This document shows positions 51,723 through 52,113 of a stretch of 64,000 nucleotides of DNA, one piece after another. Source of the DNA: Escherichia coli O127:H6 str. E2348/69 (GTDB taxonomy: Bacteria > Pseudomonadota > Gammaproteobacteria > Enterobacterales > Enterobacteriaceae); the NCBI RefSeq assembly GCF_000026545.1, contig NC_011601.1. One strand, given 5' to 3'. The notes under the pieces were generated by a model, which saw only the letters and a list, made by a program, of their open reading frames with translations, was not told the DNA's origin and ran no database searches. Made by a program: the position numbers and the translations under genes. Each line of letters begins with the position of its first letter. Within the stretch, counting starts at the first letter, position 1.

Positions 51723-52113
51723 TGGTATCGGCCATTTTACCCAATGCTGCGTAACGCCTTATAACTTCAGCAATGAAGCGTTGTCTGTGGTAAACGGACA
51801 TCACAGCGGGGGTGTGGGTCCGGCTGTAAATCGCCGAATCGTTTCCTGTAGGCCGGGGCAGCCCACATGGATGTGGGCTGAGGGCGCGTCCATATATGTT
51901 ACCTCGCGCCCGTACCCGATAGCCGAAAGGAATAAGATGAGGGAACCGTGCCAGCGGCGATTTACCGCCGGGAGCCCGGGTTGCCAGGGTGGTGGCGATT
52001 GAGCCCCCCTGGCACGTTCACCGGCTTGAGCGTTCCATAGTAGCGAGGAACATCAAGTGAACGGAACAGCCTTCGATCTTACATATTCAGAATATAATGA
52101 TGCCGCCACGAAC

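Follow-up and report, generated by a model that had tools for sequence, protein, structure and literature searches.

Introduction

TwoAYGGAY (RF01731) is an RNA motif known from gut metagenomes, Clostridiales and gamma-proteobacteria, which was classed as a probable non-cis-regulatory RNA (Weinberg et al. 2010). Binding of CsrA to this motif was proposed by Gardner and Eldai (PMC4333381). Systematic ligand evolution by exponential enrichment (SELEX) gave RUACARGGAUGU as the optimum for CsrA, with hexaloops closed by AC/GU and a preference for short stems, and the CsrA dimer bridges sites 10-63 nt apart (PMC7652899). Here we describe an element with similarity to TwoAYGGAY that is located between the genes yegH and asmA of Escherichia coli E2348/69. 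The analyzed stretch of this genome, called the window in the following, comprises 64 kb, and all positions are window positions unless one of our collected loci (L and a number) is named. The segment at about 51766-52085 (about 320 bp) is probably an immobile, decaying copy of a dispersed enterobacterial repeat and not a gene or regulator specific for this locus.

For RSA, a repeat of 150/151 bp, six copies were reported in K-12, two in forward and four in complement orientation (PMC5172473). RSA (BEE95) was already catalogued in the 1990s with 150-152 bp, and the title of the reference presents it as a dispersed enterobacterial intergenic element. Other systems suitable for comparison are miniature inverted-repeat transposable elements (MITEs) like ERIC/IRU, Correia/NEMIS and RUP, and insertion sequences (IS) of the IS4 and IS110 families. 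IS621, a member of the IS110 family, targets REP elements.

Results

The Window Harbors One Copy of a Structured Repeat

The repeat family comprises two subtypes, A and B. The copy in the window belongs to type A and consists of the following parts, all on the plus strand:

51766-52085, plus strand: whole type-A copy of the dispersed structured repeat, from alignments with copies from other loci and genera
51823-51967, plus strand: core module with closing stem, nested stems and two adjacent hairpins, TwoAYGGAY-like (R1 141.1 bits, E 7e-30)
51859-51880, plus strand: hairpin 1, CAGCCCAC-AUGGAU-GUGGGCUG, perfect 10-nt arms, GGA at 51869-51871, intact
51882-51911, plus strand: hairpin 2, stem GGGCGCG/CGCGCCC, loop altered in E2348/69 (loop comparison of 41 copies)
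51890-51897, plus strand: scar CCATATAT in place of TTTACAGGGAT, equal to the final 8 nt of an IS110-family element (junctions of seven insertions)
51983-52013, plus strand: hairpin 3 (GCCAGGGUGG...CCCCCCUGGC), an inverted repeat
52015-52063, plus strand: 3' helix CGUUCAC...GUGAACG enclosing a variable region, with pairs that switch between the subtypes
52064-52085, plus strand: degenerate right-end remnant GAACAGCCTTCGATCTTACATA, which aligns with the type-A right end ...GGAATAACCTCCTGAGCCGCATG

R1, a covariance model built from the 145-nt core, had its sole match in the window at 51823-51967, and this copy was the lowest-scoring full-length member of the family. Over 41 distinct copies the core forms 44 pairs in 9 helices with 97.9% of the cells paired. 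Pairing fell to 35-40% when the 3' partners were slid by 1-3 columns, and 0 of 500 shuffles reached the observed values; both controls are generous, as the structure was derived from the same 41 sequences and the shuffles ignore relatedness, but the margin is still very large. Fourteen core pairs were changed on both sides (117 cells). G-U cells were found 19 times at 12 pair positions and A-C cells only twice, at 2 positions. This excess points to the plus strand as the strand that folds, either as RNA or as single-stranded DNA.

The individual helices showed the same behavior. The helix of hairpin 1 has four covarying pairs, and GGAUG in its loop region was invariant in 41 of 41 copies. The other 40 copies carry ...UUACAGGGAUGUUAC... 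or close variants in hairpin 2, and GGA is absent from this loop in the window copy alone. Covariation between the subtypes was also seen in the stem of hairpin 3, which is CAGGGTGG/CCACCCTG in A and GGGGGCGGC/GCCGCCCCC in B. In the 3' helix (alignment pairs 233-239 with 275-281) CG pairs change to UA/AU across the subtypes, with 15-17 sequences each.

The preliminary description of this locus had noticed GC-rich inverted repeats, and these were found as GCCCACATGGATGTGGGC (51861-51878) and GGGCGCGTCCATATATGTTACCTCGCGCCC (51882-51911). Besides, a long-range inverted repeat of 17 nt with 94% complementarity connects 51820-51836 to 51955-51971, and a further inverted repeat (51982-51992 with 52004-52014) forms a hairpin. 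On folding, which had been suggested as a check, the segment 51800-52070 was more stable than all of 200 dinucleotide shuffles on both strands (z = -3.8 and -4.1, 200 shuffles each).

On its left side the window copy has no recognizable end, and on its right side the end is degenerate. The copies in L022 and L047, which are oriented independently, are similar to it from TTCAGCAA on. Its right end can be aligned with GTGAACGGAATAACCTCCTGAGCCGCATG, the type-A end in Enterobacter, and the type-A right end ...GGAATAACCTCCTGAGCCGCATG resembles the IS4-type end CTGACCAGCATTA.

Distribution of the Family and Comparison to RSA

Additional places with about 80% identity were detected by BLAST in 5425 of 5426 complete E. 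coli genomes, with a median of 3-4 per genome. The copies are intergenic and are located at lysO-aqpZ, alx-sstT, proX-ygaY, efeU-putP and dusC-yohP. K-12 has two intact copies (173 bits each with R1), at lysO-aqpZ (K-12 positions 915035-915180) and dusC-yohP (K-12 positions 2229224-2229369), and two damaged ones, at yegH-asmA (5'-truncated) and efeU-putP (internal deletion of about 120 bp); two copies lie on the forward and two on the reverse strand. The RefSeq annotation of K-12 has no repeat features at any of these loci. The sequences 5' of different copies are unrelated and the orientation is mixed. Four copies lie in sense orientation downstream of a gene (yegH, dusC, alx, proX), and those at lysO-aqpZ and efeU-putP are antisense to both neighbors. 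Two of the sense copies directly follow genes for TerC-family membrane proteins, yegH (50073-51722) and alx (L004 1435-2400), which may be coincidence with only about six loci.

At two of the loci K-12 carries other repeats where other strains carry the family: REP elements at proX-ygaY (L009 3126-3316) and a boxC-like GC-rich repeat at alx-sstT (L010 3547-3944). The whole intergenic stretch differs in both cases, as if repeat families replace each other at the same sites. With other repeats in place, boundaries and target duplications of the E. coli copies were not definable by comparison to a K-12 empty site.

A degenerate-pattern scan with one genome per species revealed the family in Escherichia (several species), Enterobacter, Kluyvera, Pseudocitrobacter, Huaxiibacter, Silvania and Lelliottia, where a genome often had 3-6 copies. 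BLAST also matched records of Klebsiella, Citrobacter and Phytobacter. Pattern hits in Streptomyces (L045, L054) and Ideonella (L029), which were 3 of the 45 hits of the collection, and in Butyricimonas (L037) had no R1 match and were rejected as chance matches. A 583-bp contig labelled Bacillus sp. (L046, coverage 0.72 according to its name) contains an Escherichia-type copy, the 5' part of which resembles lysO-aqpZ and the 3' part efeU-putP; contamination or a chimeric assembly is most likely. Kluyvera intermedia L032 has Ns and long G/C runs at about 6650-6690, where hairpin 3 is expected, and this is probably an assembly artefact at a GC-rich hairpin. A search of plasmids (35 records matched) did not reveal an autonomous parent element. 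The plasmid matches among those listed were mostly hundreds of kb to several Mb in size, like misfiled chromosome pieces, and two were about 74 kb.

The family could be identical to the RSA repeat (BEE95), in which case nothing but the present details would be new. The long-range inverted repeat at 51820-51971 spans exactly 152 bp, and the two forward K-12 copies (lysO-aqpZ and yegH-asmA) would fit the two RSA copies in normal orientation. However, we detected only four K-12 copies instead of six, and with two intact and two damaged ones they are not of uniform length. From this comparison, made by described length, copy number and strand alone, we consider identity with RSA possible but doubtful.

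Polymorphism of the yegH-asmA Gap

The gap of E2348/69 comprises 448 bp, 100% identical to NZ_CP059840.2, and that of K-12 MG1655 only 273 bp. The preliminary description had correctly taken the gap of about 450 bp to be longer than in K-12. Pairwise alignment revealed one single difference of 175 bp. Besides the repeat copy the gap region has the following features (where no strand is given, none was assigned):

51720-51722, plus strand: stop codon (TGA) of yegH (open reading frame 50073-51722; annotated in E2348/69 as yegH, TerC family protein)
51738-51745: left copy, TACCCAAT, of the 8-bp direct repeat bounding the 175 bp absent in K-12 (alignment of E2348/69 and K-12)
51746-51765: REP-like half remnant GCTGCGTAACGCCTTATAAC, low confidence, by-eye likeness to the REP core ...GCGTAAACGCCTTATC... 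beside the efeU-putP copy
51913-51920: right copy, TACCCGAT, of the 8-bp direct repeat bounding the K-12 deletion (same alignment)
52111-52150: REP element with arms at 52114-52127 and 52133-52146 (naRNA4 31.6 bits, below the gathering score)
52171-52173, minus strand: stop codon of asmA (open reading frame 52171-54024, minus strand; annotated as asmA in E2348/69)

The junction of K-12 holds a single TACCCAAT and reads ...CATTTTACCCAATAGCCGAAAGG. When the gap was used as BLAST query, the long, full-length allele was present in 1424 of the 5426 genomes (26%), and most of the remaining genomes had a K-12-like allele that covers the last 258 bp of the query (191-448). The yegH-asmA copy is deleted in most strains, scarred in E2348/69 and split by IS or other insertions elsewhere. 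A third allele was seen in AMSCJX03 (L058 301-592), with an internal deletion of about 156 bp that reaches from after CAGCGGGGG to just before GGGCCCGGGTTGCC; the whole core is removed and the left flank is kept.

Two Escherichia genomes filed as separate species (L022 8711-9076 and L047 283-648) carry the block of repeat and REP in reversed orientation, in the order asmA end, element, REP, yegH end. An inverted block or an independent insertion would explain this order.

The REP at 52111-52150 is the sole one in the gap, of which the preliminary description had recognized only the last part of about 40 bp as REP. The half remnant at 51746-51765 had no model match; a direct repeat (AACGCCTTAT/AACGCCTGAT) is common to it and to the true REP at 52111. 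Much of the block of repeat and REP in the window lies between the arms of a perfect inverted repeat of 11 nt, TCCTGTAGGCC/GGCCTACAGGA (51844-51854 and 52144-52154).

The Loop of Hairpin 2 Carries the Scar of an IS110-Family Element

The odd loop GTCCATATATG of hairpin 2 in the window is an IS scar. The uninterrupted allele of ST131 reads GCGTTTTACAGGGATGTTACC, compared to GCGTCCATATATGTTACC in E2348/69, which is 3 nt shorter. In strain 23CRST031 the yegH-asmA copy is interrupted at the loop of hairpin 2 by a 1.39-kb IS110-family element, whose transposase has DEDD_Tnp_IS110 and Transposase_20 domains and which has about 280 non-coding nt after the gene. All seven sampled insertions (L060 2134-3519; L061-L066 1501-2886) have one position in the loop and one orientation in common, and they represent three loci and both subtypes. 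In 23CRST031 and the six other insertions the left junction joins ...ACAGGGAT to AATGAGATGG and the right junction joins ...GGAGCGTCCATAT, also given as ...GGGAGCGTCCATAT, to ATGTTACC. Since all sampled insertions share the identical loop position, CCATAT belongs to the IS.

The sequence of E2348/69 consists of the left flank up to GGGCGCGT followed by the last 8 bases of the IS, and therefore fits the product of a deletion between GGGCGCGT and the IS-end GGGAGCGT. The scar allele was present in 58 records (about 1%), and the IS110-family element itself in 180 of the 5426 E. coli genomes, with 1-4 copies each and 340 insertions in all. The six sampled insertions besides that of 23CRST031 come from these 180 genomes.

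Two short matches to the target lie in the 3' non-coding region of the IS: the 9-mer GAGGTAACA is complementary to the flank on the right, and the 7-mer CGTTTTA is identical to that on the left. These guide-like matches are suggestive only, as about 0.3 matches of the 9-mer type would be expected in the IS by chance according to our own estimate. Like REP/BIME for IS621, the repeat is a GC-rich intergenic hairpin sequence that serves as specific target of an IS110-family element. Unlike in the case of IS621, the target is the hairpin-2 loop of this family and not REP, the true REP of the gap being separate (52111-52150), and the non-coding region lies 3' of the transposase gene, which we take to be the layout of IS1111.

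Reciprocal hybrid junctions were observed: L062 and L065 have the order lysO-IS-yohP-mdtQ, and L066 has dusC-IS-aqpZ. Recombination seems to have taken place between the IS copies in the repeats of lysO-aqpZ and dusC-yohP, at about 915 kb and 2229 kb of K-12. This would mean an inversion of about 1.3 Mb that is centered roughly on the terminus. In ECONIH1 and Z226-7 (L061 and L063, 3097-3544) the stretch from the IS110-family element to asmA contains a truncated gene for a RelE/ParE toxin as well as a helix-turn-helix gene, so this gap has also gained a toxin-antitoxin remnant.

Long Relatives in Other Genera Have IS4-Type Ends

Pseudocitrobacter and Kluyvera have a longer non-coding element with the module as its right part. 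This element measures 633 bp in L021 and L053, and its ends are TAATGCTGGTCAGTTAAG ... CTTAACTGACCAGCATTA in L021, L032 and L053. The ends of IS4 in K-12 are TAATGCCAGTCAGTTAAG and TAATGCCGATCAGTTAAG, with a 12-bp duplication, and 16 of 18 positions match between the 18-bp ends of the long element and those of IS4. Flanking direct repeats match at 13 of 13 bases in L053, at 10 of 11 in L032 and, weaker, at 8 of 11 in L021; in L053 and L032 the insertion splits an apparent terminator hairpin. As another, diverged module is found on the opposite strand of the left part (R1 27-57 bits over the full length), the long form is an IS4-type miniature element carrying two inverted modules. It could presumably be moved by an IS4-type transposase.

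Like MITEs, the long relatives are non-coding and intergenic, and they have IS4-like ends and, as IS4 does, target duplications of 11-13 bp. They differ in their interior, which is unrelated to IS4 and contains a covarying multi-helix fold as cargo instead of a simple palindrome. The E. coli copies, including that in the window, have neither of the two ends and no duplication. The window copy has several traits of a MITE: it is small (about 320 bp), non-coding and multi-copy, and at proX-ygaY and alx-sstT the family is missing or replaced in K-12. A left terminal repeat was not found for it, the best inverted match being at chance level (14 nt), and no target duplication was detectable around it. 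In the type-A copies, except L028 and L052, the search for a left terminal repeat also gave only chance-level matches. The best place in E. coli covers no more than about 50% of the long element.

Relation to TwoAYGGAY and Predicted Binding of CsrA

The preliminary description had proposed a search of the segment against Rfam. This search found only the REP-derived naRNA4, below threshold; the relation to TwoAYGGAY appeared only through intact copies elsewhere. These align over the whole 168-position model at 26.6-31.5 bits, less than the gathering score of 43, and include the ST131 yegH-asmA allele and both intact K-12 copies. The only match above the gathering score (49.2 bits) was the inverted left module of the long Pseudocitrobacter element. 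The window copy had no match to TwoAYGGAY at E ≤ 10 because its loop 2 is scarred. Loop 1 reads A(U/G/A)GGAU in 41 of 41 copies and loop 2 reads A(G/U)GGA(U/C/G) in 40 of 41. The window copy has only one of the two TwoAYGGAY loops, as loop 1 is intact but the sequence of loop 2 is CCAUAUAU.

The family resembles TwoAYGGAY in its long closing stem around two adjacent hairpins with AYGGAY-type loops and in its multi-copy occurrence without a single gene context; the seed copies of Psychromonas, which have conserved flanks, are dispersed repeats as well. It differs by AGGGAU in loop 2 of the enterobacterial copies (R and not Y at position 2), by additional nested stems and a small CCGCG hairpin within the closing stem, and by two further 3' hairpins. 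The E. coli accessions we looked for, including NC_000913, did not occur in the examined part of the original TwoAYGGAY alignment file. All in all, the family represents an extended enterobacterial variant of a known motif, with scores below the threshold, and is tied to a mobile element of a known kind.

Hairpin 2 of the intact copies is UACAGGGAUGU and hairpin 1 is ACAUGGAUGU (ACAGGGAUGU in Kluyvera). Each forms a 6-nt loop with AC:GU as closing pairs, and 29 nt separate the two GGA motifs. By their sequence, these loops match the high-affinity consensus of CsrA. The functional idea with the best support is that the loops would bind a protein, and CsrA is the candidate. At least two loop GGA motifs at a distance of 10-63 nt are present in the intact members; the window copy has the site of hairpin 1 alone.

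One far-reaching interpretation would combine these observations. The family would be a mobile docking module for CsrA, a miniature element moved by IS4 with one double-hairpin site per strand, so that transcription in either direction would bring a dual high-affinity site into a host transcript. TwoAYGGAY RNAs as a whole would be protein-binding modules carried by transposons in this way, and the IS110-family element would have evolved an RNA guide to the GGA loop and use the family as a safe landing pad. We consider this combination rather improbable.

A more local interpretation is a cis-acting RNA module in the 3' untranslated region (3'UTR) of yegH, in which the GGA hairpins would bind CsrA or block exonucleases and by this adjust how stable the yegH transcript is or titrate CsrA at this site. 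The copy lies in sense orientation directly 3' of yegH with no terminator-like site between them, and the same layout is seen at dusC, alx and proX. Furthermore, the G-U bias indicates that the sense strand folds, CsrA was independently proposed for TwoAYGGAY (PMC4333381), and the intact loops fit the SELEX optimum with GGA motifs 29 nt apart, within the bridging distance of 10-63 nt (PMC7652899). However, the copies at lysO-aqpZ and efeU-putP are antisense to both neighbors, the long form carries one module per strand, both hairpins are deleted at yegH-asmA in K-12 and most other E. coli, and the GGA of hairpin 2 is lost in E2348/69. The long stable stems are also unlike the short ones favored in SELEX. 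In the part of the gene table of the CsrA integrated-transcriptomics study that was available to us, dusC and ybjE/lysO had only "No" in the yes/no columns and "NS" overall, which is weak evidence as the meaning of the columns was not checked; aqpZ, yohP and yegH were not found in this part of the table. A regulatory role of the segment in the 3'UTR, one of three options of the preliminary description, may exist, the data neither proving nor disproving it; on balance such a module is unlikely to explain the locus.

Of the two other options, a decayed mobile or repeat element was supported and a small RNA was not. An independent small RNA that acts in trans and is made from its own promoter, for example a CsrB-like sponge for CsrA, would be in agreement with the conserved, covarying structure, the CsrA-like loops and the classification of TwoAYGGAY by Weinberg and colleagues as a probable non-cis-regulatory RNA. 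As in CsrB and CsrC, the GGA motifs of the family lie in hexaloops closed by AC:GU and match RUACARGGAUGU. On the other hand, the family is only a candidate for CsrA binding, has long stable stems and has neither its own promoter nor a terminator: a consensus scan, which is weak evidence, found no sigma-70-like promoter and no intrinsic terminator within 51723-52170. Each module has two GGA sites, compared to about 18-22 in CsrB. No relation exists between the sequences 5' of different copies, the 5' 175 bp are gone from K-12, and many strains have deleted or interrupted copies that are not replaced. A small RNA is highly unlikely for these reasons.

Finally, a protein-coding function of the gap was rejected, as the only candidate, a mechanical open reading frame of 101 amino acids (51697-52002) that would be broken in K-12 due to the 175-bp deletion, has no Pfam match, in line with the earlier view that no convincing reading frame exists, and REP/BIME identity of 51766-52085 (REP consensus of about 35-40 bp, GCCGGATG.../...CATCCGGC type) was rejected because of the missing REP-model match and the different fold.

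Discussion

The most probable history of the locus, a decaying copy of a dispersed repeat, comprises three events. An ancient insertion probably placed the repeat between yegH and asmA, with mobilization presumably by IS4. In the K-12-like majority, the deletion of 175 bp between the 8-bp direct repeats removed both loop hairpins. In the lineage of E2348/69, an IS110-family element inserted into the loop of hairpin 2 and was later lost by deletion between GGGCGCGT and GGGAGCGT, so that 8 IS bases stayed and the GGA loop was destroyed. E. coli seems to keep single right-half modules without ends, which would be fixed at a handful of intergenic sites and erode there. The copy at yegH-asmA is probably transcribed passively from yegH, and we infer that it has no local function.

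Several observations weigh against this history. The copies in the window and elsewhere in E. coli show no terminal repeats or target duplications, so that homology to the long elements in other genera is the basis for assuming a transposable origin. A clean empty site was also missing: K-12 carries other repeats at proX-ygaY and alx-sstT and not a precise absence. The reverse order of events, capture of a pre-existing RNA module by a miniature element, could also have occurred. Furthermore, the conservation of the fold, the compensatory changes and the G-U bias imply selection on a single strand, which a cut-and-paste DNA element does not need. Some function of the family at the RNA level appears likely on these sequence grounds and could perhaps extend to the intact yegH-asmA copies of other strains.

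The preliminary description had also named two outcomes that would argue against its view, namely that the segment is present unchanged in most E. coli genomes and gives no transcript, or that it matches a described repeat family. The first did not apply, considering that 1424 of 5426 genomes have the long allele; the second did, inasmuch as the family is related to TwoAYGGAY of Rfam.

The locus itself is ordinary: a decaying repeat copy explains 320 bp without annotation and a difference between strains, and no new gene is needed. If our interpretation is true, the consequences for the family would be wider. TwoAYGGAY, a motif of unknown function, would gain a genomic vehicle, the IS4-type miniature element; if the family were identical to RSA, this point would link two literatures and not be a discovery. 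A sub-threshold enterobacterial branch of TwoAYGGAY would be present in K-12 itself and open to genetics, and with near-perfect predicted CsrA loops at ideal spacing the published CsrA hypothesis would become testable with K-12 sequences. The family would also be the dedicated target of an RNA-guided IS110-family element that leaves recognizable scars and whose copies lie at the junctions of apparent large inversions.

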